Virus record (IMG/VR): IMGVR_UViG_3300037418_003152
Span: 5,271 to 69,270 of that record
Length of the DNA stretch: 64,000 bases
Origin: a virus
Taxonomy: Duplodnaviria > Caudoviricetes
Direction: 5' to 3' (one strand)
Of this stretch, positions 2,755 through 55,893 are shown in pieces. Under the pieces are notes generated by a model. That model saw nothing but the letters and a program-made list of their open reading frames with translations. It did no database searches and was not told the DNA's origin. The translations under genes and the position numbers were made by a program. Positions within the stretch are counted from its first letter, which is position 1; every line of letters begins with the position of its first letter.

Positions 2755-3972
2755 CTAGTAGTTGATGTTGCCGGTGAGGCCGGGGTCGATGCCCCAGTCC
2801 TCGGCCCAGATCTGGGCGGGCTCGTCGGAGGAGCCGACCATGCCGAACGTCGACGACCCGGCGCCGATCATGCTGATCAGGCAGCGCACGGTGACGGAGC
2901 TGGCGACGGTCAGCCACCCCGACAGCGGGATGCCGATCGGGGTGCCAGAGGGCGGCAGGTAGCCGGGCTGGTGCGACAGCGAGATCGATGTGCCGAGCAC
3001 GTTCCCGCCGTTGTCGCGGTCGGGTGCGGTGCCGTCGGTGGTGTAGGTGAGGTAGTAGTTCGCGATGGACTGGCTTGCCGCGTCGCCCCAGGCGCCGAAC
3101 AGGGAGCCGACCTGGTAGATGCGGCCCGCGACGGCGGGGAAGCTGAACTCGAAGAACTTGCTGTGCACCGACGCGGCGATCGATCCCTTGTTGCCGCTGC
3201 TGCGTAGCCCACGCCCGACGTAGCGTCGCTGCCCGGGGGAGACCCAGGTGCCCGGGGTGCCGGCGACGGTGCAGATCCACACGTTGCCGGTCTGGTCGAT
3301 GACGAAGTCGCCCTTGGCGAACGTGCCGGTGGTCGGGGCGCCCGACGTCGTGCCCCCGACGTAGCGGGTGGCGGCGGTCGCACCGGTCAAGCCGAGCGGC
3401 AGCCCGAGGGTCCACGCGCCCGCGTCGATCCACGTTCCAGGCGTACCGGCCCCGGTGCAGATCCAGACGTGGCCGTTCTGCGCGATCACGTAGTCGCCGA
3501 CCGCGAACGTGCCGGTCGTCGGGGCGCCCGAGGTGGTGGCGCCGACGTAGCGGGTGGCCGACGCCGCACCGGTCAGCGCGAGCGGCAGCCCGAGCACCGA
3601 GGCCCACTGCAGCCCGTTCGTCGCGCCGGACTGCGCCTGCAGCACCTGCCCGTTGGAGCCGACCCCGAGCCGGGTCGCCGCGCCGGCCCCGGAGGCGACG
3701 AGCAGGTCGCCCTTCGCGGTGAACGTGGAGGCGATGTTGAGGTTGAGCTGCACCCACGCCGCGCCGGTGTCGTAGTAGACGGCCTGGGTGTCGGTGGCCA
3801 GGTAGAGCCGGCCGTGGATCGCGGCGGCCGGGCGCGCGGCCAGCGTGCCTTCGGCGAACACGACCGCGACCGCGTCGAGCGCGTTGGCCAGCCGCAGCAT
3901 GTCGGCGGGCACGTTGTTCGGGTCGGTCGCGGTTGGGACCTGGAGACCGAGGCGGGTCGTCGTGGTGGTCAC
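2755..3972 (-). CDS. Tail fibre / receptor-binding protein
   Basis: N-terminal TTRLGLQVP..DPNNVPADMLRLANALD anchor typical of actinophage fibres; G/T-rich; duplicated ~60-aa module; follows baseplate genes. Confidence 0.75.
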   Translation of the reverse strand: MTTTTTRLGLQVPTATDPNNVPADMLRLANALDAVAVVFAEGTLAARPAAAIHGRLYLATDTQAVYYDTGAAWVQLNLNIASTFTAKGDLLVASGAGAATRLGVGSNGQVLQAQSGATNGLQWASVLGLPLALTGAASATRYVGATTSGAPTTGTFAVGDYVIAQNGHVWICTGAGTPGTWIDAGAWTLGLPLGLTGATAATRYVGGTTSGAPTTGTFAKGDFVIDQTGNVWICTVAGTPGTWVSPGQRRYVGRGLRSSGNKGSIAASVHSKFFEFSFPAVAGRIYQVGSLFGAWGDAASQSIANYYLTYTTDGTAPDRDNGGNVLGTSISLSHQPGYLPPSGTPIGIPLSGWLTVASSVTVRCLISMIGAGSSTFGMVGSSDEPAQIWAEDWGIDPGLTGNINY

Positions 3973-27752: not shown

Positions 27753-29399
27753 TCAGGTCTGGGACCAGATCGAGAACCGGGACAGGTCCGCGGGTAGCGC
27801 CCGGTCCTCGGCGTTCCCGACCGGGGCGGACAGGTCGCGCGGGTTGAAGGCGAACTGCCCGCGCAGCACCAGGCCCTCGGCGCTCTCGCCCTCGTCGAAG
27901 ATCAGCGACGGCGTGCCGCCGATGTCCATCAGCAAATAGCGGAGGGCGTCGTAGTGGTGGTCCTTGGCCTTGGTGTCGACGTCCTCGGGCTTGCGCGGGT
28001 CCCGGGGCAGGTTCTCCATCGTCGACATCAGCTCGGGGCAGCTGTGGTCGAGCACGTGCAGCATCGGGCAGGTCGACCAGCCCAGCGCCCGGTGGTGCGC
28101 GCACGCCGGGCCCTCGGCCAGGTACTGGTGGATGCGCTGCTTGCCGCCGAACCGGTCGTTGTCGGCCTTGCGCAGCGGCGCGCCCTCCAGCGCGAACTGC
28201 GAGGCCGGGGGCAGCGCCGATCCTGACCGGCCCCACATCGCCGGGTCCGCCGCACGGGAGGCTGGGGGAGTGGTGCCCTCGCAGTTGATGATCCGGCGGG
28301 CCTGCTCGCGTTCCGGGGTCTGGATCATCGTCAGCTCGCGGTAGAGCCAGACCCGGCCGTCGGCGTCGCGCGCGCCCAGCAGGTAGGCCGAGGGCGCGGT
28401 CCAGCCGTAGTCGAGCCCGGCGTAGCGCGGCCACGACGGCGGCACGTCGAACGGCGGGACGAGAATCCTGTCGCGCTTCCAGTCGCCGAACGCGCCGTCG
28501 GGCATGACCGACCAGTCGCCGTCGAGGATGCGCCGGCGCAGCTCGGGGTCGGTGATGCCTTCGAGGGTCTTGGCGTAGTCGCCGACGAACGGGTTGTCGC
28601 GCACCTTGGCCGGGATGAAGATGCGGCGCCGGCCGGCGTCGTCGATCAGCTCGACGCGGCCGTAGTCGGTGGCGTCGACCCAGCCCTCTTTGACCACGCC
28701 GTGCCCGACGAATCCGGGGTTGGACGCCGAGCGCACCCCGAGGCACGGCACGCCGGGCACACCGGAGCGGACACGGGTGTAGAGGAACTCGACGACGTCG
28801 GGGTCGATCGTGGTGCGCTCGTCGAGGATCAGCAGGTTGATTTCCGCCGAGGACAGCGCGGAGGCTTCCTGCATGTTCTTGGCGTGGGCGAAGGTCAGCA
28901 CCGACCCGCCGGGGAACCGCAGCTCGTAGGTCGAGCCGTTCCACACCGCGCCCAGCGAGGCCCCGAACCCGTAGCGGGCCAGCATGCGCAGCACCGACTG
29001 GTTCAGCTCGGGGAACGACCGCCGGAACCAGAACACCTGGATCCCGGGGTACCGCACGCAGGTGCGCAGCGCGAGGATCAGCAAAGCGGCCGACTTCCCG
29101 CCGCCACCCGCGCCGCCGTAGAGCACGTCGAGTTCTTCGTCGGGCAGGTCGATGAACCGCTCCTGCGGGCACTGCCCGCACCGCGGCGGGATCGGCTCGC
29201 CGGCCGCGCGCGCCTCGTACTGCACCTTGCAGTTCGGGGTGAACCCGAGGATGGCCAGGACGTCGGCCTTGGCCATGCGCTCGGCGATCTGGCGGTCCCG
29301 CTGGCGGCGCAGCTCGGCGAGGCGCTGCAGCATCTCCAGCGGCGCCTCGACGACGCGCACGACCTCTTCGTTGCGGGGACGAGCGGGACGACGAGCCAT
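27753..29399 (-). CDS. terL: Terminase large subunit
   Basis: Walker A YGGAGGGGKS, Walker B ILDE, SASNPG, nuclease GLDYG and DHHYDALRY. Confidence 0.95.
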   Translation of the reverse strand: MARRPARPRNEEVVRVVEAPLEMLQRLAELRRQRDRQIAERMAKADVLAILGFTPNCKVQYEARAAGEPIPPRCGQCPQERFIDLPDEELDVLYGGAGGGGKSAALLILALRTCVRYPGIQVFWFRRSFPELNQSVLRMLARYGFGASLGAVWNGSTYELRFPGGSVLTFAHAKNMQEASALSSAEINLLILDERTTIDPDVVEFLYTRVRSGVPGVPCLGVRSASNPGFVGHGVVKEGWVDATDYGRVELIDDAGRRRIFIPAKVRDNPFVGDYAKTLEGITDPELRRRILDGDWSVMPDGAFGDWKRDRILVPPFDVPPSWPRYAGLDYGWTAPSAYLLGARDADGRVWLYRELTMIQTPEREQARRIINCEGTTPPASRAADPAMWGRSGSALPPASQFALEGAPLRKADNDRFGGKQRIHQYLAEGPACAHHRALGWSTCPMLHVLDHSCPELMSTMENLPRDPRKPEDVDTKAKDHHYDALRYLLMDIGGTPSLIFDEGESAEGLVLRGQFAFNPRDLSAPVGNAEDRALPADLSRFSIWSQT

Positions 29400-29476: not shown

Positions 29477-29664
29477 TTCGCGTACAGGTGGTTACTTTGA
29501 ACTTGAGTTGATCAGAAACCACCTACGCAAAGCGCGTTCGCTTTTCCGAGGCAAAGGTATTCACGGAGCGCAGCGGAGTGAATGCCTTTGCGGCGGCGCG
29601 CTAGCGCCGAGCTTTTCTCTCTTTATGTAATCTCTAGTATGTAGTTTCTAAGAACCCTGGTTAG

Positions 29665-29795
29665 CCGGATACGGCTCAACCGGATCCGGGTTACCCGGAC
29701 ACGGCCAGGCCGAGCACGGCCCCCCCGAGTACGGCCACACCGAACACGGCCCAGCCGAACACGGGTAAGCCGTCTTCGGTTACCCCGGGATCGGT
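29665..29795. repeat. About nine degenerate direct repeats with 15-bp period (core CCG-NNN-ACGG), iteron-like
   Basis: Units start at 29665, 29680, 29695, 29710, 29725, 29740, 29755, 29770, 29785; next to AT-rich 29612-29655. Confidence 0.75.
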
Positions 29796-32217: not shown

Positions 32218-32520
32218 TCACGAGACATCCGAGCAGATGATGCGCTCCGCGGGTGCCGCCCCGATCCGGTCGGTCAGCATGACCTCACCCCACCGGTCGA
32301 ACAGCCGCCACGACCACGGGTCGATGTCCTCGGACACCGTCAGCGGCACACCCATGAACGTCGTCCCGGGCGGGCAGCCCGGCGGCAGCGGCTCACCGCC
32401 GCCGCGTTCCTGCGCATCGGCTTTCGCCAGCTTGAACGCCAGCGTCCCCATCTCGACCCGGGCCAGCTGTGGTGGCTCGACCAGCCGACGCATCTCCCGC
32501 ATCCAGTCGATGTCGCTCAT
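32218..32520 (-). CDS. Hypothetical protein
   Basis: ATG 32520, ATGA overlap. Confidence 0.5.
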   Translation of the reverse strand: MSDIDWMREMRRLVEPPQLARVEMGTLAFKLAKADAQERGGGEPLPPGCPPGTTFMGVPLTVSEDIDPWSWRLFDRWGEVMLTDRIGAAPAERIICSDVS

Positions 32521-32816
32521 CCGGTCACGCTCCCACGCGGCACCGACCCGGCGCGGCGGGCTCGACACCCGTCGGCGTTGTGCTCGCGTATCACCCAGTC
32601 GTAGGGCCGATCCCCTGACCTGACGACCTCCACCCACCCGACCTCGGTGTCGACGAGGTCGCCCGGGCGCTTGGTGTGCTCGCGCAGCGCCAGTGGCGCG
32701 CCGCAGTTCTCGCACGGCTCGCGGCGGGTGTAGTGGACACCAGCCATCAGGAGATCGATGCGGCGCGGGTCGGTCTCGGCGGCAAGCACCAGCTCGAACA
32801 CCTCGGCAGGCGTCAC
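32517..32816 (-). CDS. Hypothetical Zn-binding protein
   Basis: CENC...H...C; coupled to recombinase stop. Confidence 0.55.
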   Translation of the reverse strand: MTPAEVFELVLAAETDPRRIDLLMAGVHYTRREPCENCGAPLALREHTKRPGDLVDTEVGWVEVVRSGDRPYDWVIREHNADGCRARRAGSVPRGSVTG

Positions 32817-33811
32817 CGGTCCACCATCCCACCGGGGTCTGACGCGGTGTCCATGATCTCGGCGAGGACGTGCCCGGCCGCGTTGGCCAGGTCCCGCGCG
32901 GACTGGTCGTAGCGCATCGTCGTCTCGAGCCGCCGGTGTCCCAGCATCTCGCGCACCTCGCGGACGTCGGCCTTGCGCCCGTCCGGGCCGGTGCCGGTCA
33001 GCGCCATCGTCGCCGCGGTGTGCCGCAGCACGTGCGGGGTCACCTTCTTGCCCTCGATCCCGGCCGCGGCGACCAGCTTGGACAGCCGGTAGGCGACGTC
33101 GAACCGATTGATCGGCTGGCCGTGCCGGTCGACGAACAGCTGCCCGTTCCGGTCCCCGAGGTGGCGGTCCAGCGCCTCCCCGGCGGCCGGGGGGAGCAGC
33201 ACCTTGTCGCGGCGCCCACCCTTGCGGGTCACCAGCAGCGCCCGATGCTCGCCGTCGCGCACCAGATCAGAGCGGCGCGCGGTGCACAGCTCGGTGGCGC
33301 GCACCGCCGTGTAGAACAGCAGCTTCACCATGGCTTCGTCGAACGTGCCGGAGGCTTCCGCGGCCGCGAACAGCCGATCCAGCTCATCGCGCGACAGGGC
33401 CGAGGTCATCGACTTCGGGTCCAGCTGCGGGCGCTTGACCCGCGCGGCCGGATTCCCCGGCACCAGGTGCTCGTGCTCGAGGTTGCCGTAGTCGTAGAAG
33501 CTCGACAGCGTCGCCATCTTCCGGACCACGGTGGCGTCGGAGTAGTGCCGGCCCGCCGAGCCGTCCTGCAGCCACCGGCGGAACCCGTCGATCATCAGCC
33601 GGTTCGCGGTCAGCGCGTCGATGTCGAACTCGTCGCACCAGGCGAAGAACTGGCTGATGTCGCGGCGGTAGGCGTCGCGGGTGTTGTCACGGCGCTGCGC
33701 GAGTAGCCACGACGCCGCGATCCGGTCCCGCAGCGCGGGCTCGTTGACCGCCACGTCGGCGCGGGCGTCAGCGTGGGCGAGCACGAGCTCGCCGTCGTAG
33801 TACTCGGTCAC
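32813..33811 (-). CDS. Tyrosine recombinase, XerC/D-like
   Basis: TAVRATEL (R), TRKGG (K), PHVLRH (HxxR), LGHRRLETTMRY (H, Y); N-terminal NTRDAYRRDI SAM-like domain; no arm-binding domain. Confidence 0.93.
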   Translation of the reverse strand: MTEYYDGELVLAHADARADVAVNEPALRDRIAASWLLAQRRDNTRDAYRRDISQFFAWCDEFDIDALTANRLMIDGFRRWLQDGSAGRHYSDATVVRKMATLSSFYDYGNLEHEHLVPGNPAARVKRPQLDPKSMTSALSRDELDRLFAAAEASGTFDEAMVKLLFYTAVRATELCTARRSDLVRDGEHRALLVTRKGGRRDKVLLPPAAGEALDRHLGDRNGQLFVDRHGQPINRFDVAYRLSKLVAAAGIEGKKVTPHVLRHTAATMALTGTGPDGRKADVREVREMLGHRRLETTMRYDQSARDLANAAGHVLAEIMDTASDPGGMVDR

Positions 33812-34257
33812 CGGCCACCGGCCATCAGCTCGACCGCACGGGCGATCAACTCGTGCGCGCGGCGGCGGCGGCTTTCGTCGCGCTCGCCGCCGTCGGCGGG
33901 GTACTCGATGCCGTAGCCGTCGCGCCAGCGCGGGATGAGCCCGAGGTTGGCCAGCGGCTGATACAGGTCGTACCGCCAGTCCGACGAACCGGTGATCCCG
34001 TAGTTCGTCGAGGCCTCACCGTCGATGAGCCCGAACGCGAGCGCACCGAGGTAATGGCGCACGCTCTCGCGCCGACCCGGCACCGGAGAGTCGAGGAACG
34101 CGACGATCTGCTCGTCGGTCGGATCGACGGCCGCCGGCGGGGCGAACTCGACGTCGCGCCACTGGTCGCCGTCGAACCACTGCACGACGTCGCCGTGGAT
34201 CCGAAGATGCCCGGGGCGCTCTGTGCCCGGCGGCGGATTCAGTAGCGGCTCGCTCAC
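33808..34257 (-). CDS. Hypothetical protein
   Basis: GTG 34257, GTGA overlaps at both ends. Confidence 0.6.
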   Translation of the reverse strand: MSEPLLNPPPGTERPGHLRIHGDVVQWFDGDQWRDVEFAPPAAVDPTDEQIVAFLDSPVPGRRESVRHYLGALAFGLIDGEASTNYGITGSSDWRYDLYQPLANLGLIPRWRDGYGIEYPADGGERDESRRRRAHELIARAVELMAGGR

Positions 34258-34598
34258 CGGCGCCACATCCGGCGGAGCCCGTCGAGCAGCTGCCGGCCGA
34301 TGCTGGGCGGCGGCTCGGGGGCGGGCGGGAGCGGCGCGACGTCGCGGTAGGGCGAGGCGTCGCCGTGCTCGGCGCGGCACCGGTCCATCTCTTCGCGGGC
34401 GACGGTGTAGGCGGCGACCGCTGCAAGGTGGCGCCCGTGCCGGGAGGCGGCGAGCTGGCGGCCGAGCAGTCGCTCGACGGCGGCCGTGTGCTCGCAGCTG
34501 AGAGCGTCGCTCTCGTCCACTACCACCTGTCGCAGTCCAAGTCCATGTGCCGTTCCGCGAGCGATGTTCGCTACCGGCGGTAAGTTAGCGTGCTGCAT
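34254..34598 (-). CDS. Hypothetical protein (start uncertain)
   Basis: Stop coupled to the next gene; annotated ATG lies inside the dif-like site, so the real start is probably internal. Confidence 0.45.
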   Translation of the reverse strand: MQHANLPPVANIARGTAHGLGLRQVVVDESDALSCEHTAAVERLLGRQLAASRHGRHLAAVAAYTVAREEMDRCRAEHGDASPYRDVAPLPPAPEPPPSIGRQLLDGLRRMWRR

Positions 34599-34617
34599 AA
34601 CGTTGATTATGTGAAAA
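34590..34617 (+). other. dif-like Xer recombination site
   Basis: GTGCTGCATAA-CGTTGA-TTATGTGAAAA versus E. coli dif GGTGCGCATAA-TGTATA-TTATGTTAAAT (7/11 and 9/11 arm identity, same 11-6-11 geometry). Confidence 0.7.
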
Positions 34618-34634: not shown

Positions 34635-34982
34635 CTACTTGGACGGCGTGGCGCCCCTCGGATCGCCCAGCGGAAGTCGCGGCGAGTCGAGGAACCCCAG
34701 CCCGGTCACTGGCTCGGACACGGCGACCTGTTCGGCGCGCACCCAGCCGCGCGCGATCGCCTCCTTGGCCGCGGCCGGCGACAGCACCAGAACCGGGTCC
34801 GGGCGGGGCGGCGCCTCCTCGGCGATCCGCACCGCCGCAGCCATCCCGGCGGCCAGCGGGTCTTCGCCCGTGATGTAGACGGCGTGGTCGATGGCGAGCG
34901 TCGCGGCGACCATCGCCCTGTTGACGAGATCTTGCAGTTGCCCGGGTGGCCGCTGGTCGGCGCCGAGGGGATGGCGGTTCAT
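34635..34982 (-). CDS. Hypothetical protein
   Basis: ORF with RBS-like GGAGGG; codon use consistent with neighbours. Confidence 0.5.
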   Translation of the reverse strand: MNRHPLGADQRPPGQLQDLVNRAMVAATLAIDHAVYITGEDPLAAGMAAAVRIAEEAPPRPDPVLVLSPAAAKEAIARGWVRAEQVAVSEPVTGLGFLDSPRLPLGDPRGATPSK

Positions 34983-35178: not shown

Positions 35179-36219
35179 GTGACACATGCCGAGTACCTTG
35201 CGCTGCGCCGGTTTCCCGCCCTCGACGGGCTGCGCGCGGTCGCGGCCGCGCTGGTGGTGTTCTTCCACTTCGGCGGTCCGCACTGGACCTGGGTGTCGGG
35301 CTGGATCGGGGTGCACATCTTCTTCGTGCTCTCCGGGTTCCTCATCACCACGCTGGCGCTGCGCGAGGAGGCCCGCGACGAGCGGGTGTCGCTGCGCAAC
35401 TTCTACCTGCGCCGGGGCGCGCGGATCCTGCCGGTCTACTACGTGGTGGCGGCCGTCGTCGTCGCGCTGGCCTGGGCGCGCGGCGAGCTGGCCGGGCGGC
35501 TGGCCGCGGATCTCCCCTACTACCTGACCTTCACCGGGGAGCTGCTGGGCCCGGGCGAACCCTGGGGGCAGGTCTGGACGCTGGGCATCGAGCAGAAGTT
35601 CTACCTGCTGTGGCCGCTGCTGGCGTTCGCGGTGGCGCTGTCGGTGCGGCGGCGGGCCGCGGTCGCCGTGGCCGTGCTCGCGGTGGTGCTGACGCTGTGC
35701 CCGATCAACGGCATGTTCGTGTCCTACGTGCCGATCGCGGCCGGGTGCCTGCTCGCGGTGGTGCTGCACTGCCCGCGCGGGTTCGCCGCGCTCGCCGGGC
35801 TGACCCGCCCGGTCGGGGCGGTGGTGGCGGCGGCGGTGTTCGCGCTGGCGCATCTGGCGGTCCCGACGCTGACCGCGGCCCTCGGGGAGCCGGGCGCGAT
35901 CCTGGTCTACACCCCGGCGGTGGTGGCGCTGCTGGTGTCGCTGGTCGGCGGGCGGGGCCCGGTGGCGTGGCTGCTGTCGCGGCGCCCGCTGGTGTTCACC
36001 GGGGACCGGTCCTACTCGGTGTATCTGATCCAGAGCGTGGCGGCCACCGTGGTCGGCGCGACGATCCCGGCGCTGGGTACGCATCGCACCGCGACCGCGG
36101 TGGCGGTGCTGGCGGTGGCGGTGGCGATGGCCGATCTGCTGTACCGGTGGGTGGAGCTGCCCGGCATCGTGTGGGGCCGGCGCGCCACCCGGGCGCGGCG
36201 GATCGCGGCGGCGTCGTGA
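35179..36219 (+). CDS. Acyltransferase family 3 (OafA/YrhL-type O-acyltransferase)
   Basis: ALDGLRAVAA, GVHIFFVLSGFLIT, FYLRRGARILP, WTLGIEQKFY, GDRSYSVYLIQ, LYRWVELP motifs; about 10 TM. Confidence 0.92.
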   Translation: MTHAEYLALRRFPALDGLRAVAAALVVFFHFGGPHWTWVSGWIGVHIFFVLSGFLITTLALREEARDERVSLRNFYLRRGARILPVYYVVAAVVVALAWARGELAGRLAADLPYYLTFTGELLGPGEPWGQVWTLGIEQKFYLLWPLLAFAVALSVRRRAAVAVAVLAVVLTLCPINGMFVSYVPIAAGCLLAVVLHCPRGFAALAGLTRPVGAVVAAAVFALAHLAVPTLTAALGEPGAILVYTPAVVALLVSLVGGRGPVAWLLSRRPLVFTGDRSYSVYLIQSVAATVVGATIPALGTHRTATAVAVLAVAVAMADLLYRWVELPGIVWGRRATRARRIAAAS

Positions 36220-37806: not shown

Positions 37807-37882
37807 GGTAGCGGAGGCAGGATTTGAACCTGCGACCTCAGCGGTATGAGCGCTGCGGGGTACCGAGCTCCCCTACTCCGCT
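37807..37882 (-). tRNA. tRNA with CAT anticodon (Met; fMet-like body)
   Basis: Cloverleaf: acceptor AGCGGAG/CTCCGCT, D arm GGGG/CCCC, anticodon stem CAGCG/CGCTG with loop CTCATAC, T arm GCAGG-TTCAAAT-CCTGC; ends A-C-C (terminal A not encoded). Confidence 0.9.
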
Positions 37883-39018: not shown

Positions 39019-39588
39019 CTACTTCACCGTCCTTCGGTGCTCGGCCAAGATGGCCTCGACGTCGGGATCGCCGGGCGCCCACGCCCCGGTCAGCGCGTAG
39101 GTGGTGGTCAGCGCGTCGTGCTGCTCCACCCCACGAAGGCTGATGCAGCCGTGCGCTGCGGAGATCACGCACGCCGCGCCGATGGGCTCGAGCACCCGCT
39201 GTAGCGCGGTGGCGACCTGCCAGCCCAGCCGCTCCTGCACCTGCAGCCGGGCCGCGTAGTCGCCGAGCACTCGGGCCAGCTTGGACAGGCCCACCACCGG
39301 GGCGCCGACCCCGGGCCGGTAGGCCACGGTCGCGGTGCCGGTGATCGGCAGCAGGTGATGGGCGCAGGTCGAGCGCACCGCGATCCCCGAGACCATGACC
39401 AGCCCGGGGTCGTGCGGGGCCGGGAACACCTTGGCCAGGTGCCGGGCCGGGTCGACCTGGTAGCCGGCCAGTGCGGCGGCCCATGCCTTGGCCACTCGGT
39501 TCGGGGTGTCGGCGGTGTGCGCGCCCTCGTCGACGCCCAGCGCGGTGAGCAGGTCGGCGACGGCGACGGCGGCCTTTTCCACGTCCAC
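39019..39588 (-). CDS. folE: GTP cyclohydrolase I
   Basis: TPNRVA, STCAHHLLP, LSKLAR, RLQVQER, HGCISLRG. Confidence 0.95.
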   Translation of the reverse strand: MDVEKAAVAVADLLTALGVDEGAHTADTPNRVAKAWAAALAGYQVDPARHLAKVFPAPHDPGLVMVSGIAVRSTCAHHLLPITGTATVAYRPGVGAPVVGLSKLARVLGDYAARLQVQERLGWQVATALQRVLEPIGAACVISAAHGCISLRGVEQHDALTTTYALTGAWAPGDPDVEAILAEHRRTVK

Positions 39589-39591
39589 GGG

Positions 39592-40314
39592 TCAGTGCCC
39601 CCTCTCGTCGCCCCAGGCCAGCACGTGCAGCCGGTGGCTCGCGTTGATGCCCAGTTCGGCGGCCGCGGCGGCCAGCCCCGGCCAGCGCGCGGCCAGCACG
39701 GCCGCAGTGGTGCCCTCGGGCATCACCCAGATCCGTTCGCGCGGGAACCGCATCGCCGCGCCCAGCTCCAGCGCCAGATCGAGATCGGCGCGTTCGGTGA
39801 CGACGACCTTGAGGTGCGCGCCGCCGTGCCAGGGCGCGATGGTGGCCCACCGCGGGTCCATCGCCGGGTCCTGGTGGCCGCGGTGGCCACCGGCGTTGGG
39901 CAGCTTCGGGGACACGCAGATGATCCGGGCGTGCTCGCGGGTGTGGCCGTCCGGCGCGATGGTGCCGTTGGTCTCGATGTGGATCTCGCGGCGGCCGGCC
40001 AGGCGGGCCAGCAGCTCGTGCCAGGCCGGGCGGTGCTGCTGCAACAGCGGTTCCCCGCCGGTGAGCACCACGATCCGGCCGGTGCGGGCCAGCACGGCCT
40101 CGGCTAGCTCGGTCGCGGTGCGCTGGCGGGTCTCCGCGCGCAGGTCGTAGCGGGCGCTGTCCCAGGTGTAGGCCGAGTCGCACCACGCGCACGACAGGTT
40201 GCAGCCGGCGAACCGGATGAACGTGGCGGCCTGCCCGGCGGCGGGCCCCTCCCCCTGCAGGGTCGGGCCGAACAGCTCCACCACCGGCAGCGTGTCCCCG
40301 CTCGGGGCGCTCAC
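39592..40314 (-). CDS. queE: 7-carboxy-7-deazaguanine synthase (radical SAM)
   Basis: GTG 40314; TLQGEG, RFAGCNLSCAWCDS (CxxxCxxC), LTGGEPLLQ, IETNGT, SPKL. Confidence 0.95.
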   Translation of the reverse strand: MSAPSGDTLPVVELFGPTLQGEGPAAGQAATFIRFAGCNLSCAWCDSAYTWDSARYDLRAETRQRTATELAEAVLARTGRIVVLTGGEPLLQQHRPAWHELLARLAGRREIHIETNGTIAPDGHTREHARIICVSPKLPNAGGHRGHQDPAMDPRWATIAPWHGGAHLKVVVTERADLDLALELGAAMRFPRERIWVMPEGTTAAVLAARWPGLAAAAAELGINASHRLHVLAWGDERGH

Positions 40315-40733
40315 CGGGCCCACCGCCACGACGCGGCGTTGACGTGGGTCTCGGCGACCCGCACCGCGACCGCGTCGACCTCGGGGTAGTCGAACAGCCG
40401 TACGCCCCACTCCCCCACCCAGCGGGCGATGTTCTCGGTGGTCGGGTCGGCGGGGCAGACCTTGAGCCCGGGCAGCTCCAGCGCGGTGAGCTCGTCGTGC
40501 TCGTTGAGCAGCAGCCGGTGGTCGTAGGTGCTGTCGAGGTGGCCGCGGAAGGACTGCTTGATCGCGCCGAAGTCCAGCCCGGCCAGGATGCCGTGGTGGT
40601 TGACCCGCCCGGTCAGCTCCAGCTCCACCCACATCGAGTGGCCGTGGATGTTCTCGCAGCGCCCGGGTAGCTGCGAGAGCCGGTGCGCGGTCTCGATGTT
40701 GTGGCGCACCGTCACGGTCTTGACCGGCTCCAT
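40311..40733 (-). CDS. queD: 6-carboxy-5,6,7,8-tetrahydropterin synthase
   Basis: ATG 40733; AHRL..GRCENIHGHS, DFGAIK, YDHRLL, PTTENIA, ETHVN. Confidence 0.93.
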   Translation of the reverse strand: MEPVKTVTVRHNIETAHRLSQLPGRCENIHGHSMWVELELTGRVNHHGILAGLDFGAIKQSFRGHLDSTYDHRLLLNEHDELTALELPGLKVCPADPTTENIARWVGEWGVRLFDYPEVDAVAVRVAETHVNAASWRWAR

Positions 40734-41404
40734 CACGCGGATACTTCGTAGGAGGTGTGGTCGTTGACCCCGGCCAGGGCCATCGCCTCCCGGCGTTCCA
40801 CGCAGGTTCCGCACACCCCGCAGTGGCGGGTGCCGCCCTTGTAGCAGGACCAGGTCTTGTGGATCGGCACGTCGAGCTCGCGGGCCAGGGTCGCGATCGC
40901 GGTCTTGTCGATGTCGACGAACGGGGCGTCGAGGCGCACCGCGTTGTCGGTGCCCAGCTGCACGGCGTTGGACAGCGCCTCGATGAACTCGGGCCGGCAG
41001 TCCGGGTAGATCGGGTGGTCCCCGGCGTGCACCGCGGTGAGCACGACGTCGCAGTGCCGGGCGATCGCGACGCCGGCCGCGGCGCACAGCAGGGTGGCGT
41101 TGCGGTTGGGGACGATGGTCGCGCGCATCGAGGGGGCGGCGTAGTGGCCCTCGGGCACCGGCACCGCGCTATCGGTGAGCGCCGACCCGGTCAGCAGCGC
41201 GCCCCACCCGGTCATGTCCAGCACCTGGTGGTCCACGCCGTAGAACGCGGCGATCTCCGTGGCCGCGGTCAGCTCGCGGGCGTGGCGCTGCCCGTAGTTG
41301 ACCGACAGCGCCACCGCGGCGGTGCCCTCGCGGTGCGCCTTGGCGAGCAGGGTGGTCGAGTCGAGCCCTCCGGAGAGCAGCACGAGGTCACGTCGAGTGG
41401 GCAT
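40733..41404 (-). CDS. queC: 7-cyano-7-deazaguanine synthase
   Basis: SGGLDST PP-loop, YGQRH, VPNRN, YPDCRPEF, TWSCY..HCGVCGTC. Confidence 0.96.
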   Translation of the reverse strand: MPTRRDLVLLSGGLDSTTLLAKAHREGTAAVALSVNYGQRHARELTAATEIAAFYGVDHQVLDMTGWGALLTGSALTDSAVPVPEGHYAAPSMRATIVPNRNATLLCAAAGVAIARHCDVVLTAVHAGDHPIYPDCRPEFIEALSNAVQLGTDNAVRLDAPFVDIDKTAIATLARELDVPIHKTWSCYKGGTRHCGVCGTCVERREAMALAGVNDHTSYEVSA

Positions 41405-42431
41405 GGGGAGACGTCCTTCGGAAACAGGTGTGTCGGGAACCGTGCTTGCGCCACAGCGGCGGAATGGCGCCGTCGGTGGCGGCGTGCAGCTCGCGGTCGA
41501 GCCCGGCGGCGGGCTCCAGACCGAACTCGGGAGTGATCGAGTTGTACAGGTGCGGGCCGGGGTGCAGGCGCCGGTCCAGCGCGGCGGTCCACGCGACGTC
41601 GGTGACCTGCTTGCCGCCGCCCTGGCCGATCACCGAGTTGTACAGGTGCGGGCCCGGGGCGGCGCCCTCGCGCGGCGGGGTGACCGGGCCGGTGCGCTTG
41701 AGCTGTTCGTCGGCGCAGGCGTAGGCCAGGGACATGGCCTGCATCAGCGCGCCGCGGCCCTCCGCGCGCCCGGGCATGCGCCCGGTGCGCCCGAGCAGCG
41801 CCAGGTCGATGCCGTGGTCGAGCAGGTGCGCGCGGTCGCGCAGCAGCCGGGCCCGGTCGCCGACCTGCGTGGAGACGATGTCGCGGCCGTTGAAGTAGAC
41901 GATCGAGCCGAACCGGAACGCCCCAGAGATGTTGGAGGCGTCCGCGGAGTACGGGCGGGTGGCGCGCAGCGTGGCCATCGACCCGATGCCCAGCGCGTGC
42001 ACTCCCCCGCCGGCGTCTGCGGCCCGGCGCTGCAGCATCCCGACCCGCTGGCGCTGCGCGGCGGCCGGCAGCCCGACCAGCCCGCCCACGCACACGTAGC
42101 CGACCTCGCGCACCATCGCGTCGAAATCGGCCAGCTTGTCCCCGCGGGTGAACACCGGCATCACCGGCAGCCCGCGCTCGTGCAGGCGGCGGGTGTTGAC
42201 CGCGCTGGCCTTGCCGTCGCCGATCACGTCGAGGGTGATCGCGTGGTCCCAGCAGCCGCGGTAGCGCTCCAGGTAGGCCGCGTAGTCGCCGAGCTTGACC
42301 GGCTTGCCCTTGGACCAGGCGGTGAACGCCCCGGAGTCGATCATCAGGTTGCCGCACACCAGGTTGGCGCGCACCGCGGTCAGATCGGTGTCGGCGTGGA
42401 AGGCGAACGACAGCAGGATGTTGACCGCCAT
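41388..42431 (-). CDS. dpdA: TGT-fold 7-deazaguanine DNA transglycosylase (DpdA-like)
   Basis: ATG 42431; MIDSGAFT, LDVIG, GGLV, VHALG, SADAS TGT-family motifs; adjacent to queC. Confidence 0.8.
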   Translation of the reverse strand: MAVNILLSFAFHADTDLTAVRANLVCGNLMIDSGAFTAWSKGKPVKLGDYAAYLERYRGCWDHAITLDVIGDGKASAVNTRRLHERGLPVMPVFTRGDKLADFDAMVREVGYVCVGGLVGLPAAAQRQRVGMLQRRAADAGGGVHALGIGSMATLRATRPYSADASNISGAFRFGSIVYFNGRDIVSTQVGDRARLLRDRAHLLDHGIDLALLGRTGRMPGRAEGRGALMQAMSLAYACADEQLKRTGPVTPPREGAAPGPHLYNSVIGQGGGKQVTDVAWTAALDRRLHPGPHLYNSITPEFGLEPAAGLDRELHAATDGAIPPLWRKHGSRHTCFRRTSPHAHST

Positions 42432-42655
42432 CAGCCGCTCCGCCGGGGCCAGCCCCGCCGGCCCGGGGTGATCGAGTTGATCAGGATGCGGGCCTGCTGG
42501 GCGACCCAGCGTTGCCCGCCGACGAGCGTGCAGCTCGGGCACGGCTGGCGGCCGCGGGTGAACAGCGCGGTGTGCGTCGCGGGGGGCTTGTCGCAGCGGT
42601 AGATCGCCCCGGTGATGGTGACCACGAGGTAGCGGTGGTCGCGGCGCGGGATCAT
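42431..42655 (-). CDS. Small hypothetical protein (CPSC)
   Basis: Coupled at both ends. Confidence 0.5.
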   Translation of the reverse strand: MIPRRDHRYLVVTITGAIYRCDKPPATHTALFTRGRQPCPSCTLVGGQRWVAQQARILINSITPGRRGWPRRSG

Positions 42656-43020
42656 CCCGACCCCTCCCCCACCTGCCCGTCCGGCTTGGGTGCCGGCGGG
42701 GTCCAGCCGGCGTCGACGAGCCGCACCGCGATGCCGCGGTTGGCGGTGCCGGTGAGCCGCACCGCGGCCTCGATCAGCTCGTGGCGGCGCGACGGCGGCG
42801 GCGCCTCCACCCCGAGCAGGGCCGCGGCGAGCAGCACCCGGCTGCGGCCGGGCAGCTCGATGTCGAACTCCAGTGCGCGCACGATGTCGCCGACGTGGGT
42901 CGCGACCCGGGAGTTGATGTCGGTGACGGCGTGGTGGGCCGCGACCAGCCTGTCGCCGGCCATCTGGATGAGGGACTGCTCCTCGGGGGTGTACTCCTCG
43001 CGGGCGGCCATCGCGGGCAT
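42652..43020 (-). CDS. Hypothetical protein
   Basis: ATG 43020, TGATG overlap. Confidence 0.55.
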   Translation of the reverse strand: MPAMAAREEYTPEEQSLIQMAGDRLVAAHHAVTDINSRVATHVGDIVRALEFDIELPGRSRVLLAAALLGVEAPPPSRRHELIEAAVRLTGTANRGIAVRLVDAGWTPPAPKPDGQVGEGSG

Positions 43021-43682
43021 CAGATACCGGCCAGGTCGAGCACCGTCCGCACGCGCGCGGCGTCGTCGTTGCCCTCGATGAGGTTCCACCGCTGGTGGAT
43101 CTCCGGGGGCACCTGGGCGCGGATCACCGGCCACGCGGCCCGGTCGGTCGCGTTGAGCACGTCGTCGTCGGAGCCGTCGCCCAGCTCGGGGCCGCGCAGC
43201 AACGCCTCCATCGCGGCCAGCTCGGACTGGTCGTAGCCGGTCAGCTCCAGCAGCTGCCCCTCGGCGAGCTCGGCCAGCATCTCGGTCAGCTCGTAGGTGT
43301 CCCAGCCGCCGCGCTCGGTGAGCCGGTTCGACGCGATCAGGTAGGCCGCGGCCTCATCGTCCGAGCGCGAGGCCCAGCCGCGGATCACCGGCATCAGCCA
43401 GGTCCCGTCCGCGGCGACCCGCACCCCGGCCGGCGGGGCCTGGCCGTCGGCGCGCATCTGGCGCAGCTGCTCGAGCCGGCCGTGCCCGGCGATCAGCTTG
43501 CCGGTGCGGTCATCCATCAGCGGCAGCTCGGCCAGCCCGAACCGGCCGATCGAGCGGTTGATCCCGGCCTCGTCGTGCGCCTTGGGGTTGCGGTCGGCCT
43601 CGTTCACGTCGTCGAGCGCGATGTGGTCGACGTAGTGCCCGGTCTCGGCGGGCTTCTCCTTGCTGGTGCCGGCGGCGGCCAT
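43020..43682 (-). CDS. ParB/Srx N-terminal domain protein (DNA-modification-cluster type)
   Basis: RNPKAHD...SIGRFG...LIAGHGRL...AYLIASNRL ParB-like pattern; ATG 43682 with GGAG. Confidence 0.78.
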   Translation of the reverse strand: MAAAGTSKEKPAETGHYVDHIALDDVNEADRNPKAHDEAGINRSIGRFGLAELPLMDDRTGKLIAGHGRLEQLRQMRADGQAPPAGVRVAADGTWLMPVIRGWASRSDDEAAAYLIASNRLTERGGWDTYELTEMLAELAEGQLLELTGYDQSELAAMEALLRGPELGDGSDDDVLNATDRAAWPVIRAQVPPEIHQRWNLIEGNDDAARVRTVLDLAGI

Positions 43683-43731
43683 GTTCATCTCCAGGGGTGG
43701 CGGTGTGTGGGAGGCGCACCGACCCCGGACA

Positions 43732-43786
43732 TGGCACAGCCCGACCGGGGGTAAGGGGGGGACCCAACGGTCGGGCTGCCGTGCCA
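43732..43786. other. Long intergenic hairpin upstream of the ParB/dpdA/que operon
   Basis: CAGCCCGACCG...CGGTCGGGCTG (11 bp) extended by TGGCAC/GTGCCA. Confidence 0.55.
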
Positions 43787-43827
43787 CTACGAGCGATGCG
43801 CAGCATAAGAACGGCGACCGGCGAGAG

Positions 43828-44916
43828 TCAAGTAGGCCGGACGTCGCGTCCAAGCAGACCGGACGTGGCGGCGCGGCGGCGCGCGGCCGCGGACACCGCG
43901 ACGACGGCCACCTGCAGCTCCGGGGGCAGCGCCTCGATCGGCGGACGCACCCGCGAGTCCACCGCCGCCGAGGAGCGGCGGGCCTGCAGCTCGGCGATCG
44001 TGGACACGATGTCCCCGACCCGGTAGCGCCAGCGCCGGTGCGGGTCACCCGCGGAGGGCCTGTGACGGGCCAGCCCGTGGTTGCGGTGCAGCGACCGGAT
44101 GATCTCCGGGGTGATGGTCACCCCGACCAGCCCGGGCAGCGCCCGCGACGCGAGCTCGGCGGTGACCAGCAGCCCCTGGGACTGCTCGAGCAGCCAGGCG
44201 CGGCGCTCGGTGACGTTGTAGACCGCCTCGCAGGCCCGGCAGGTCACGAACGCCGAGTCCGGGTGGGCGTAGAGGTCGACCTGGGGCTCCAGCGGGGTCG
44301 AGCACCCGCACGCACCCAGGTAGATCCGGGCCGGCGCCCGGTCGATCGCGTGCTCGCAGCGGGCCACCGCGTCGACGACCTCGTCGACCAGCTCGCCGCC
44401 GGCCTCGTCCGCGCGCACCGTCTCCAGGTGCCGGTCCAGCCAGCGGGCGAGCTCCGCGGTGTCCCCGGACGGGAGCCGGGCCGCGTCGCGGCGGTTGCTC
44501 GGGTTGGTGGCCGTTTCCGGGGGTGGGTAGGTGTAGGCCCCGGGCACCGGGGCCCGTAGCGGCCCGTAGGGCGCGCCCTGGGGCCGCTTACGCGGCAACA
44601 CGTCCTCCCAGGCCAGCCCCCGGGATTCCAGCAGGTGCGCGGTCCAGGTGGTGAGCACCGCGTGCAGGTCGCGGCCGGCCTCGGTGGCCTCGGGGCGGTA
44701 GAGCAGCGGCGGTTCGTCGCTGCGCCCGCCGGGCTGGGGGTCGGCGACGTCCTGGCGGGTCATGTTGACCAGCAGCTCGGCCATGATCTCGGGGATCGAG
44801 CGCAGCGCCGTGCGCAGCTCGGCCGTGCAGTTGGTGCACACGAACGCGTCGGCCACCGGGTACGGGCCGCGGCACGACGGCGTGCGGCACAGCGGCGTGG
44901 TCGCGGCGCGGGTCAT
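43828..44916 (-). CDS. Zn-ribbon/HTH protein (possible late transcription regulator)
   Basis: ATG 44916; C..C, CTNC, CGC, CRAC and C-terminal WRYRVGDI; usual position before late genes in actinophages. Confidence 0.55.
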   Translation of the reverse strand: MTRAATTPLCRTPSCRGPYPVADAFVCTNCTAELRTALRSIPEIMAELLVNMTRQDVADPQPGGRSDEPPLLYRPEATEAGRDLHAVLTTWTAHLLESRGLAWEDVLPRKRPQGAPYGPLRAPVPGAYTYPPPETATNPSNRRDAARLPSGDTAELARWLDRHLETVRADEAGGELVDEVVDAVARCEHAIDRAPARIYLGACGCSTPLEPQVDLYAHPDSAFVTCRACEAVYNVTERRAWLLEQSQGLLVTAELASRALPGLVGVTITPEIIRSLHRNHGLARHRPSAGDPHRRWRYRVGDIVSTIAELQARRSSAAVDSRVRPPIEALPPELQVAVVAVSAAARRRAATSGLLGRDVRPT

Positions 44917-46629: not shown

Positions 46630-46782
46630 TCAGCTCATCCGGCAGAGCACCGCGGTGGAGGCGGGCATGGTGGCCCAGGCCAGCACGCCGGCCCCGGCGA
46701 GCAGGACGGCGCAGAAGATCAGCCACAGCGCGACGGGATGGGCGTCGGCCCACGCGGCCAGCCGCCGCCACCGGCGGATCAC
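46630..46782 (-). CDS. Small membrane protein (50 aa)
   Basis: Manual ORF MIRRWRRLAAWADAHPVALWLIFCAVLLAGAGVLAW...; GTGA overlap. Confidence 0.55.
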   Translation of the reverse strand: MIRRWRRLAAWADAHPVALWLIFCAVLLAGAGVLAWATMPASTAVLCRMS

Positions 46783-54048: not shown

Positions 54049-55893
54049 CTACGCGGCCACCTGGCCGTGCAGCACGGCGCGCAGTCGCGCCCCGATCCAC
54101 TCCCCGACCTGCGGGGACACCGCGTTGCCGAACCCGTCGACCTGGTCGCGGGCGCTGCCCCACACGACGAACGCGCCGTCGTAACCGGGGAAGTCGACGT
54201 CGAACCCGCAGCCGCGGCCGACCTCGTGAGCGGCCATCATCCGGAAGAAGCAGTCCTCCAGCGGCAGCTCAGCCAGCGAGGCCCGCCACTGCGCCATCAG
54301 CAGCGCCGTCGTGTCCCGCGAGGTGAGCGTGCCCAGCGGATCCGACATCGGGTGCGGCGCGGTCTCGTTGCCCTGCACGCCGTTCTGCTTGTACCAGCCC
54401 GAGAACAGCACCGAGCCGTGGTTGCCGGCGCCGACAAGCGTCCGCAGAGGGCTATCCACCGGGTGGACACGGCCCGCGATGCCATCGTTCTGCTGGATCA
54501 CTCCGGCCGCGGTGAGCAGCCCCGGGCGCTGATCGGCGGTGACCGTCGGCATCGCCTCGGCGTGCATCGCCGGCAGCGTGTTCTGCCGGAACGGCACCAC
54601 CCCCGAGGACACCAGCGCCAACGTCTCCGACCCGACCTGGGTGGGTAGCGGGTCACCAGCGCCGCGCGGGGCCCCCTGGTAGTTGTCCACCGCCAGCGCG
54701 ACCGGCGGCGTCACCAGCCCGACGGTGTTGGTCGCGGGCTGAGTCCACAGAGGCTGATCCAGGCCCCGCGAGCGGCAGTCCGACCCCGGGCGCTCGAACC
54801 GGTTGCCCGCAGCGACGATCACCGCCCCGGTCGAGAGCAGCCCGGTCTCCTGCTGGCTGGTCTGGGTGGCCATCGGCTGCCACGGGTGGCGCTCCGACCC
54901 GTGCACAGCCTTCGCCGGCATGAGGATCGCCGGGAACTCGGCGAACCGGGCCCGGCAGCGCTCCGCGCGGGCCATCGTCGAGGCGGCGAGCGGACGCTTG
55001 CGGTCCCCGATGCGGGTCCCAAGGTCGGTCAGGTCGAGCGCGGCCAGCGACGGCGTCATCGGCGGCACCACCGCGGCGCGACACCGCGGGCAGCGGTACT
55101 CGTACTGCTTGCCGTAGCGCACCGCACCCGTCGGCGGCACCCCCGTCTTCCACGACCACACCCCCTCGACGACCTGGTCGCAGCGCCCACACCAGGCGTG
55201 CGGCCGGTGGTCGAGGTCCGGGGTCGGTAGCCGCCGGTCCCAGAACGCCCAGTAGCCCCGGTCCCGCGACTGCGGCACCCCGAAGAACATCGAGTTGAGG
55301 TAGAGCAGCTTGTGGCGGTAGCCCAGCTTCTCGAACTCGCGCAGCCACCACCGGTACGTCGACCCGTCGCCCACCTTCGGCCGGCCCGGGATCGCCGGCC
55401 CCCACGAGACGAGCTCGGTGGTGCACTCGACCAGGATCAGCTGCGGGTGGTGCTGGGCGGCGTAGTGCAGCACGCAGTTCGCCGTCGCCCGGTCCCGCTC
55501 CGAGCGGGTCACCCGGGCATCGAAGTCCGGGTCGTCGAGGTCGAACAGCGACAACCCCTGCGCGTAGGCCTTCTGGGTGTTCGCTGGGGAGTGGTTCACG
55601 CAGCTGACCCCGGCGACCAGCAGGTCGGCGGCCGGCAGGTCGCGCGCGGAGTGGTAGTCCGAGGACTCGGGGTCGACCAGATCGGCGATCCAGTGCTCGG
55701 CTTCCGGATGGTTGGCCTCGTGCACCTCGACCTTGTAGCGGTTGTGGTTCGCCGCCATGATCGTGGTGAAGCCGGCCTGCTTGATGCCCGTGGTGAGCCC
55801 CCCGAACCCGGAGAACAGATCGACCGCGACCAGGTCGTCGTGCGCGAAGCGGCGCCGGCGGGTGGCTGGCCGGTGCTCGGCAGTGGCGGCCAC
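54049..55893 (-). CDS. C5-cytosine DNA methyltransferase (atypical motifs)
   Basis: Motif I DLFSGFGG; motif IV-like AGVSC; motif VI-like VECT; QSRDRGY (motif VIII); motif X FGNAVSP. Confidence 0.85.
   Translation of the reverse strand: MAATAEHRPATRRRRFAHDDLVAVDLFSGFGGLTTGIKQAGFTTIMAANHNRYKVEVHEANHPEAEHWIADLVDPESSDYHSARDLPAADLLVAGVSCVNHSPANTQKAYAQGLSLFDLDDPDFDARVTRSERDRATANCVLHYAAQHHPQLILVECTTELVSWGPAIPGRPKVGDGSTYRWWLREFEKLGYRHKLLYLNSMFFGVPQSRDRGYWAFWDRRLPTPDLDHRPHAWCGRCDQVVEGVWSWKTGVPPTGAVRYGKQYEYRCPRCRAAVVPPMTPSLAALDLTDLGTRIGDRKRPLAASTMARAERCRARFAEFPAILMPAKAVHGSERHPWQPMATQTSQQETGLLSTGAVIVAAGNRFERPGSDCRSRGLDQPLWTQPATNTVGLVTPPVALAVDNYQGAPRGAGDPLPTQVGSETLALVSSGVVPFRQNTLPAMHAEAMPTVTADQRPGLLTAAGVIQQNDGIAGRVHPVDSPLRTLVGAGNHGSVLFSGWYKQNGVQGNETAPHPMSDPLGTLTSRDTTALLMAQWRASLAELPLEDCFFRMMAAHEVGRGCGFDVDFPGYDGAFVVWGSARDQVDGFGNAVSPQVGEWIGARLRAVLHGQVAA

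Follow-up and report, generated by a model that had tools for sequence, protein, structure and literature searches.

Introduction

The closest described counterparts of the locus considered here are Cre/loxP of phage P1 (and Dre/rox), XerS/difSL of streptococci (PMC1914069) and XerH/difH, and the XerCD/dif system together with the integrative mobile elements exploiting Xer (IMEX), such as CTXphi and TLCphi (PMC9226527). The locus itself, a 28-bp dif-like site and the gene of a 332-amino-acid (aa) Xer-like tyrosine recombinase, lies in a virus record of IMG/VR (IMGVR_UViG_3300037418_003152; 69,270 bp), of which bases 5271-69270 were analyzed; this 64-kb stretch is referred to as the window, and coordinates without another label are those of the window. 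An earlier sequence-only reading had taken the pair as a sign of either a P1-like plasmid-prophage or integration at the host dif. As judged by sequence comparison, site and recombinase are associated in a large number of actinobacterial replicons, including circular plasmids and plasmid-prophages, and we put at roughly even chances the reading that the site is the recombinase's own core site, overlaps the promoter or start of its operon, and serves to resolve multimers of a plasmid-type prophage.

Cre/loxP and the window pair are alike in combining a phage tyrosine recombinase with one linked, putatively cognate inverted-repeat site, in having relatives that are circular plasmids, and in the proposed role in multimer resolution. 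They differ in that the window recombinase has no detectable sequence relationship to Cre, its site has an 11-6-11 geometry rather than the 13-8-13 of lox, and the arms of the phage site are asymmetric; furthermore, unlike P1, the present record is known as a linear fragment only and not as an episome. XerS/difSL and XerH/difH likewise place an Xer-like protein beside an asymmetric dif-like site with an ATAA/TTAT-type core; however, these systems perform chromosomal dimer resolution at the terminus, whereas the window pair is phage-borne. XerCD/dif and the IMEX share the 28-bp, 11-6-11 layout and the inner ATAA/TTAT, but the window site is unlike actinobacterial dif, and the phage brings its own recombinase, which is not an orthologue of XerC or XerD. 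Lambda-type integrase/attP differs as well, since the window recombinase has no arm-binding domain and no arm-type repeats lie by the core.

Among actinobacteriophages, extrachromosomal prophages are almost exclusively those of cluster A, in addition to the Streptomyces plasmid-phage pZL12 (PMC7157519). The cluster A mycobacteriophages with parABS and pZL12 resemble the proposed state of the window phage in being actinobacterial phages kept as plasmids, but no parABS was recognised in the window phage. To our knowledge, a module of recombinase plus site has not been described for extrachromosomal actinobacteriophage prophages. The Gordonia and Arthrobacter phages Bowser, Howe, Utz and Oregano carry double tyrosine integrases, of which the short, Xer-like partner is 32-36% identical to the window recombinase (PMC5559632, PMC9584220). 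These short-integrase genes differ in lying beside an immunity repressor and a second integrase, and no ATAA-N6-TTAT frame adjoins them; the role of the second, short integrase was left open by Pope et al. 2017 (PMC5559632).

Results

The site and its recombinase

The 28-mer was found at 34590-34617 with 0 mismatches; no other match appeared with up to 3 mismatches allowed, and shuffled sequences gave no match (0/100). ATAA-N6-TTAT occurs once in the 64-kb window, versus 0.01 expected, and no second copy of the site is present in the whole 69,270-bp record, even when 2 mismatches were allowed among the 10 inner positions. These data confirm the intact site with 11-6-11 geometry and inner ATAA/TTAT described in the sequence-only reading, and show it to be unique in the record. 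The spacer is asymmetric (CGTTGA). No arm-type repeats were found flanking the core, and other inverted repeats around the recombinase were GC-rich pairs at chance level only. The G+C content is approximately 72%. The minus strand carries nearly all genes of the window, and the gene string holding the site, called by GC3 frame plot (G+C content at third codon positions), is as follows.

28-bp site, 34590-34617: 11-6-11 geometry, inner inverted repeat CATAA-N6-TTATG at 34596-34611
Xer-like tyrosine recombinase, 32813-33811, minus strand: 332 aa, Pfam Phage_integrase PF00589 at 5e-26
Gene C, 34635-34982, minus strand: 115 aa, upstream of the site
Open reading frame (ORF) A, 34254-34598, minus strand: at most 114 aa, ATG inside the site, no family match
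ORF B, 33808-34257, minus strand: 149 aa, GTG start overlapping the ORF A stop (GTGA), no family match
ORF D, 32517-32816, minus strand: 99 aa, 4-base overlap with the recombinase stop, no family match

The measured distance from the site to the recombinase ORF, 779 bp upstream, agrees with the approximately 780 bp given before. The site occupies the gap of about 36-108 bp between gene C and ORF A and does not lie in neutral spacer: it overlaps a -10-like hexamer (CATAAT) and the first ATG of the ORF A - ORF B - recombinase operon, the ATG within its TTATG (34598) being the start of ORF A. The gene C stop codon is 17 bases away, so that arm-type accessory sites would not fit there. Because the GC3 of the first 24 codons of ORF A is only about 54%, its real start may be a GTG near 34524. 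The ORF B stop overlaps the recombinase start, and ORF D is the last recognisable gene of the minus-strand string. ORFs A-D and many early genes gave zero matches in Pfam, PHROG and NCBIfam.

In Pfam, the recombinase consists of an N-terminal Xer-type SAM_1 domain (3e-7) and the catalytic domain, with no arm-binding domain, and an alignment of 14 homologues showed the catalytic residues R171, K197, H260, R263, H292 and Y301 to be invariant; the complete active site and missing lambda-type arm-binding domain reported earlier are borne out. It is the only PF00589 gene of the 69-kb record, in which no serine recombinase was found. The nearest NCBIfam models are XerC, XerD and XerA, all with scores well under the ortholog cut-offs: 146 bits for XerC (TIGR02224; cut-off 335) and 126 bits for XerD (TIGR02225; cut-off 330), compared to 343 bits on the XerD model for the true XerD of Amycolatopsis japonica. 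The XerS model gave 52 bits versus a cut-off of 267. By these models, the window recombinase does not class as an XerC or XerD orthologue. Among solved structures, that of E. coli XerD is the nearest, and XerA is also one of the top relatives.

Linkage of the site frame to homologous recombinases

Close homologues of the recombinase (42-54% identity) lie on metagenomic phage or plasmid contigs. NATAAT-N7-ATG, read in the recombinase orientation, stands at the gene start in all 10 close homologue groups, and the full [CG]ATAA-N6-TTATG is kept in six: the window, L001/L002, L007, L127, L128/L129 and, near-exactly, L003/L004/L017. One inner mismatch is present in the frame of L003/L004/L017, L009/L010 and L013, and the window and L001 have 15/16 core bases in common. 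The first position of the -10-like hexamer is C, not the usual T, in 7/9 close groups, which we read as fitting selection for a CAT...ATG palindrome.

Distant homologues (27-39% identity) carry the frame with long inverted arms at a variable distance to the start codon, so that the frame is not merely start-codon context. Among plasmid and chromosomal members, 8-11/11 arm positions are inverted, and several chromosomal loci also carry the frame by a homologous recombinase. Three of the extrachromosomal members are the following.

Kocuria pKPAL3, 4.4-kb circular plasmid: arms 10/11, site 53 bp upstream of the recombinase
Rothia p1, plasmid: arms 8/11, site 103 bp upstream of the recombinase
Streptomyces decoyicus phage-plasmid, 93 kb, circular: site 227 bp upstream, followed by a small ORF and then the recombinase

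In total, the frame is linked to a homologous recombinase in the window plus more than 15 loci, including about ten phage or plasmid contigs, and 535 kb of related high-GC DNA contains 12 frames, of which 11 are recombinase-linked and one is a canonical dif. The link between site and recombinase drawn in the sequence-only reading is therefore upheld, as many actinobacterial replicons have the inner frame at the head of a homologous recombinase gene or its operon. Because of these comparative data, it is almost certain that the window site is a functional cis-element, and it is likely a recombinase core site.

Homologues at 45% (L009/L010) and 34% (a Pseudonocardia broussonetiae plasmid) identity are encoded between FtsK/SpoIIIE and ParA-type plasmid genes. 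A second, longer canonical tyrosine integrase coexists with the homologue in L001 (11323-12486) and in L003/L004 (4538-5791), as well as in the Gordonia phages Bunnybear and Kiko and the Arthrobacter phage PeggyLeg03 (L094-L096); thus the homologue need not be the integrase of its element.

A rule placing the start codon in the right arm of every site was rejected, because the first ATG of the A. japonica chromosomal copy opens a 9-codon ORF. Upstream of the recombinase, clusters of GGTCAGC/GCTGACC were observed in L003 (9800-9990) and L017 (2460-2620), and three copies of TCAGTA plus its complement in L009 (about 3650-3700), the same word as in the arms of pAmyja1, a plasmid described below; these repeats may be accessory binding sites. 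An endonuclease VII gene adjoins the recombinase homologue in two unrelated elements (L007, 7144-7743; L011, 9041-9637). The 93-kb circular S. decoyicus element, annotated as plasmid unnamed1 of strain NBC_01584 (NZ_CP109340.1; L014-L016), encodes capsid, tape measure, terminase, ParA, toxin-antitoxin genes (RelE/Phd, HicB), DnaB, DciA and FtsK; S. platensis (H32) has a comparable 93-kb record.

Plasmid-size and integrated forms of the phage lineage

A search with the window TerL identified pAmyja1 (L097/L098), a 92,539-bp circular plasmid of A. japonica. Its major capsid protein, portal and TerL are 57%, 48% and 43% identical to those of the window, and the tape measure and other genes are also in common. 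Exactly one ATAA-N6-TTAT is present in pAmyja1, a perfect 11/11 palindrome at 46653-46680 of the plasmid, and it heads a minus-strand string of small ORFs ending in a tyrosine recombinase, a layout as in the window. A capsid search of 401 Pseudonocardiaceae genomes gave three carriers: A. japonica, in which the phage genes are on the plasmid contig only, and the genomes G702 and G776. The phage genes of G702 are found only on a separate 92,001-bp contig (G702:C5, L107; 58% capsid identity), whose own perfect palindrome heads a same-strand string that includes the recombinase. In G776, the complete virion module lies inside a 2.2-Mb contig (G776:C10, 1.815-1.870 Mb; L109-L114) and represents an integrated relative, with no recombinase homologue and, in the genome, no such site besides the dif on another contig. 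No site with the element's arms and spacer was found in the A. japonica or G702 host chromosomes. Across the three carriers (n=3), the module is thus present where the element is of plasmid size and absent where it is integrated. Since CheckV estimates the 69.3-kb record to be about 75% complete, the whole phage would be about 92 kb, the size of pAmyja1. The P1-like plasmid-prophage suggested by the sequence-only reading thus gains comparative support from pAmyja1 and G702:C5, which have the module and are the nearest replicons of known form with virion genes in common, and from G776, which does not; for the window phage itself, the episomal state is putative.

The TerL of the integrated G776 copy contains an in-frame TAG. 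By virion genes, the lineage of the window phage, pAmyja1 and G702:C5 is unrelated to the S. decoyicus phage-plasmid, which was rejected as a relative because it has only the recombinase in common. Comparison of the record with cultured phages by 4-kb megablast gave no match, and a single-protein scan of IMG/VR gave no close relative.

Comparison with the host dif

Among species-representative genomes, the sole close relative of the recombinase is encoded in a Pseudonocardia metagenome-assembled genome, and the nearest relatives of the virion genes are in Amycolatopsis and other Pseudonocardiaceae. GATAA-N6-TTATGT occurs about once per genome in 37/41 sampled Pseudonocardiaceae genomes and is the canonical actinobacterial dif, in agreement with the conservation of dif across Actinobacteria (Kono et al. 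2011, PMC3025954). A dif matrix was built from 25-27 sites of this family, the likely host family of the phage; two of the 27 came from unpublished genomes (G039, L048; G005, L049), and dropping them left the matrix result unchanged. The unpublished genomes G676 and G758 are present only in the 401-genome core-search listing, and no conclusion rests on unpublished genomes.

The window site scored -1.3 to +2.8 bits on this matrix versus 35-59 bits for real Pseudonocardiaceae dif sites, and among random 28-mers in which the ATAA-N6-TTAT frame alone was fixed, 10% scored as high. It equals the Pseudonocardiaceae consensus at 14/28 bases and is without the invariant CCG of the dif XerC arm and the ACA of the dif spacer, while its right arm equals 8/11 bases of the actinobacterial XerD arm. 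By our own count it equals E. coli dif at 19/28 bases, and it was this likeness that had been noticed earlier, rather than one to the dif of the likely host family. On these bases, the site is not a copy of the host dif.

A second type of palindrome was found near dif. Of 30 Pseudonocardiaceae dif loci, 14 are accompanied, at a distance of 0.3-0.6 kb, by an 11-6-11 palindrome that is perfect or nearly so and has the same inner frame (loci L030-L059, L106, L115 and L132-L139; unpublished G039, L048, gives 1/14 palindromes and one adjacent-recombinase match). The arms, roughly TT[CG][AG]TG[CG]ATAA, co-vary between genomes so that the palindrome is preserved; the spacers vary as well. Directly after this palindrome comes, in A. 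japonica, G702 and others, the gene of a conserved third Xer-like recombinase of 339 aa, which scores 148 bits against the XerC model; the true XerD is encoded elsewhere. In G529, G576 and G501, the 50%-identical homologue lies about 0.63 Mb away.

Other features of the window

Several further features were noted in the window. In the divergent gap beside TerL (27753-29399), an AT-rich patch (29612-29655) is followed by about nine repeats with a 15-bp period (CCGnnnACGGnnnnn; 29650-29790). The sequence-only reading had drawn on an iteron/DnaA origin in support of a plasmid lifestyle; that argument carries little weight, as the neighbouring 250-aa gene has only a sub-threshold GIY-YIG match and no ParA or Pfam ParB was found, and a pac/cos or homing-endonuclease context is as likely for these repeats as a replication origin. 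The remaining features are listed below.

Acyltransferase-3 (AT3) moron, 35179-36219, divergent
tRNA-Met(CAT), 37807-37882
7-deazaguanine (preQ0-type) DNA-modification cluster, 39019-44048: FolE, QueC, a DpdA-like tRNA-guanine transglycosylase (TGT) and a ParB-like gene
DNA methyltransferase, 54049-55893: 614 aa

Discussion

In the reading we prefer, the site would be a core of the Xer/lox type, with two recombinase-binding arms, the inner CATAA/TTATG and a 6-bp crossover spacer. Because the site overlaps the -10-like hexamer and the first ATG, recombinase bound at the head of the operon would also regulate its own expression. Because there is one site per genome, the reaction served would be recombination between two copies of the phage genome, and its outcome the resolution of circular dimers or multimers of an episomal prophage or of a replication intermediate, like that by Cre/loxP for P1. 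Binding of the site by the recombinase, maintenance of the phage as a circular episome and this role of the pair in resolution are our inferences.

Several observations weigh against this reading. The record is linear, and its ends do not overlap; the ends of G702:C5, whose circularity is putative, do not overlap either, and tblastx of these ends returned noise only. Within the window site, 6/11 arm positions are inverted, five of them being the inner CATAA, and the outer six bases are non-palindromic; in the window phage and its closest relatives, these outer bases are inverted at about 1/6, the chance level. NATAAT-N7-ATG is the sole universal feature of the close clade, and a leaderless-mRNA promoter alone would explain it. 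The window recombinase shares only about 30% identity with its counterparts in pAmyja1 and G702:C5 and, as the only recombinase in 69 kb, is also what an integrase would look like. Furthermore, the record yielded no recognisable ParA, Pfam ParB_N, replication initiator or repressor, and the one PHROG ParB-like match is inside the DNA-modification cluster. It is the non-palindromic outer arms of the window clade, the fit of NATAAT-N7-ATG to a leaderless promoter, and the fragmentary record with no recognised partition or replication genes that hold our confidence down.

Alternatives to this reading were weighed. The site could be a promoter or operator only: a CATAAT -10 element separated by a 7-nt discriminator from the start codon (ATG) of a leaderless transcript, possibly combined with a small operator, at which no recombination occurs. 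Actinobacteria have many leaderless genes that carry a TANNNT box 6-8 nt upstream, and the motif in all 10 close groups fits such a promoter, its ATG opening the recombinase ORF itself in five groups (L007, L009/L010, L013 and, in frame, L003/L017) and ORF A in the window; the non-palindromic outer arms of the close clade fit as well. However, an E. coli-type promoter scan gave zero matches at the site, the L001 motif lies inside a coding frame with an ATG that opens a 2-codon ORF, and C rather than T is kept at the first hexamer position. In distant homologues, moreover, the frame has perfect 11-bp inverted arms, its distance to the recombinase start ranges from 36 bp to 6 kb, and Kocuria and S. 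decoyicus read CATAAC in the gene direction, so that we regard a site serving transcription alone as unlikely. An IMEX-type hijack, in which the site would mimic the host dif and host XerCD would integrate the phage there as for CTXphi, draws on the 11-6-11 geometry, the inner ATAA/TTAT, the 8/11 agreement with the XerD arm and the 19/28 agreement with E. coli dif. It is disfavoured by the low matrix score and the 14/28 identity to the consensus of the likely host family, together with the missing CCG and ACA, and IMEX elements normally have no recombinase of their own, whereas this phage encodes one that is no XerC or XerD orthologue; the dif-integrating lifestyle through XerCD put forward in the sequence-only reading is thus very improbable. 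A chance AT-rich palindrome of no function would suit the higher A+T of intergenic DNA and the unremarkable outer arms, but it is barely credible when 0.01 such sites are expected per window, more than 15 independent homologous loci have the frame in the corresponding position, and 535 kb of related DNA holds only 12 frames. Hijack of XerCD/dif and chance, even added together, are still highly improbable.

Another alternative keeps the phage recombinase and makes the site its phage attachment site (attP) for a non-dif chromosomal target, such as the palindrome 0.3-0.6 kb from dif in many Pseudonocardiaceae. The recombinase is the sole one of the record and lies in a moron-rich region (AT3 acyltransferase) typical of lysogeny modules; the asymmetric arms resemble attP cores; and Gordonia phage Howe has a related short integrase for which Pope et al. 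2017 (PMC5559632) predicted an attP. In 8/401 Pseudonocardiaceae genomes, the dif-adjacent palindrome has a spacer of exactly CGTTGA and an overall identity of 20/28 to the window site; however, these eight were found by a search with the window's own core and are therefore ascertained (chance estimate 0.05-0.1), 20/28 is not exceptional given that other mobile sites reach 16-20/28 without the spacer match, and none of the eight genomes has a related prophage. As to relatives integrated at dif, for which the sequence-only reading had proposed to look, the one integrated relative, G776, is not near dif and is without recombinase and site. Contigs of the source metagenome showed no junction, which is weak evidence; in the probable source-sample contigs the phage contig is unbroken across the site, and the other joints are 20-25-nt high-GC cross-matches, uninformative on integration or circularity. 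An attP function is, on balance, unlikely. One exact 16-nt core match among the 401 genomes, in G660, was rejected as a bacterial attachment site (attB), because it has different arms and neither a recombinase nor a phage gene in its vicinity. The dif-adjacent palindromes with CGTTGA are a lead and not support. It is conceivable, though quite doubtful, that the phage site and the chromosomal third recombinase with its palindrome belong to an undescribed Xer-like system, and that the phage, given the identical 6-bp spacer in eight sampled genomes, integrates at the dif-adjacent palindrome via its own recombinase. If true, a tailed phage would here reach the replication terminus by a novel route, with its own recombinase instead of XerCD.

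Should the preferred reading hold, of a core site that belongs to the recombinase and serves multimer resolution in a plasmid-type prophage, a second actinobacterial plasmid-prophage lineage would be made up of the window phage, pAmyja1 and G702:C5, each of about 92 kb, and the second, short tyrosine integrase of many actinophages would gain a testable role. The pair would also be a compact recombinase-site system native to high-GC actinomycetes, pairing an 11-6-11 site with a protein of about 330 aa. Few Cre/lox-like tools exist for Streptomyces, Amycolatopsis and related antibiotic producers, and the relatives, with their naturally perfect sites of different arms and spacers, would be raw material for orthogonal tools of this kind.

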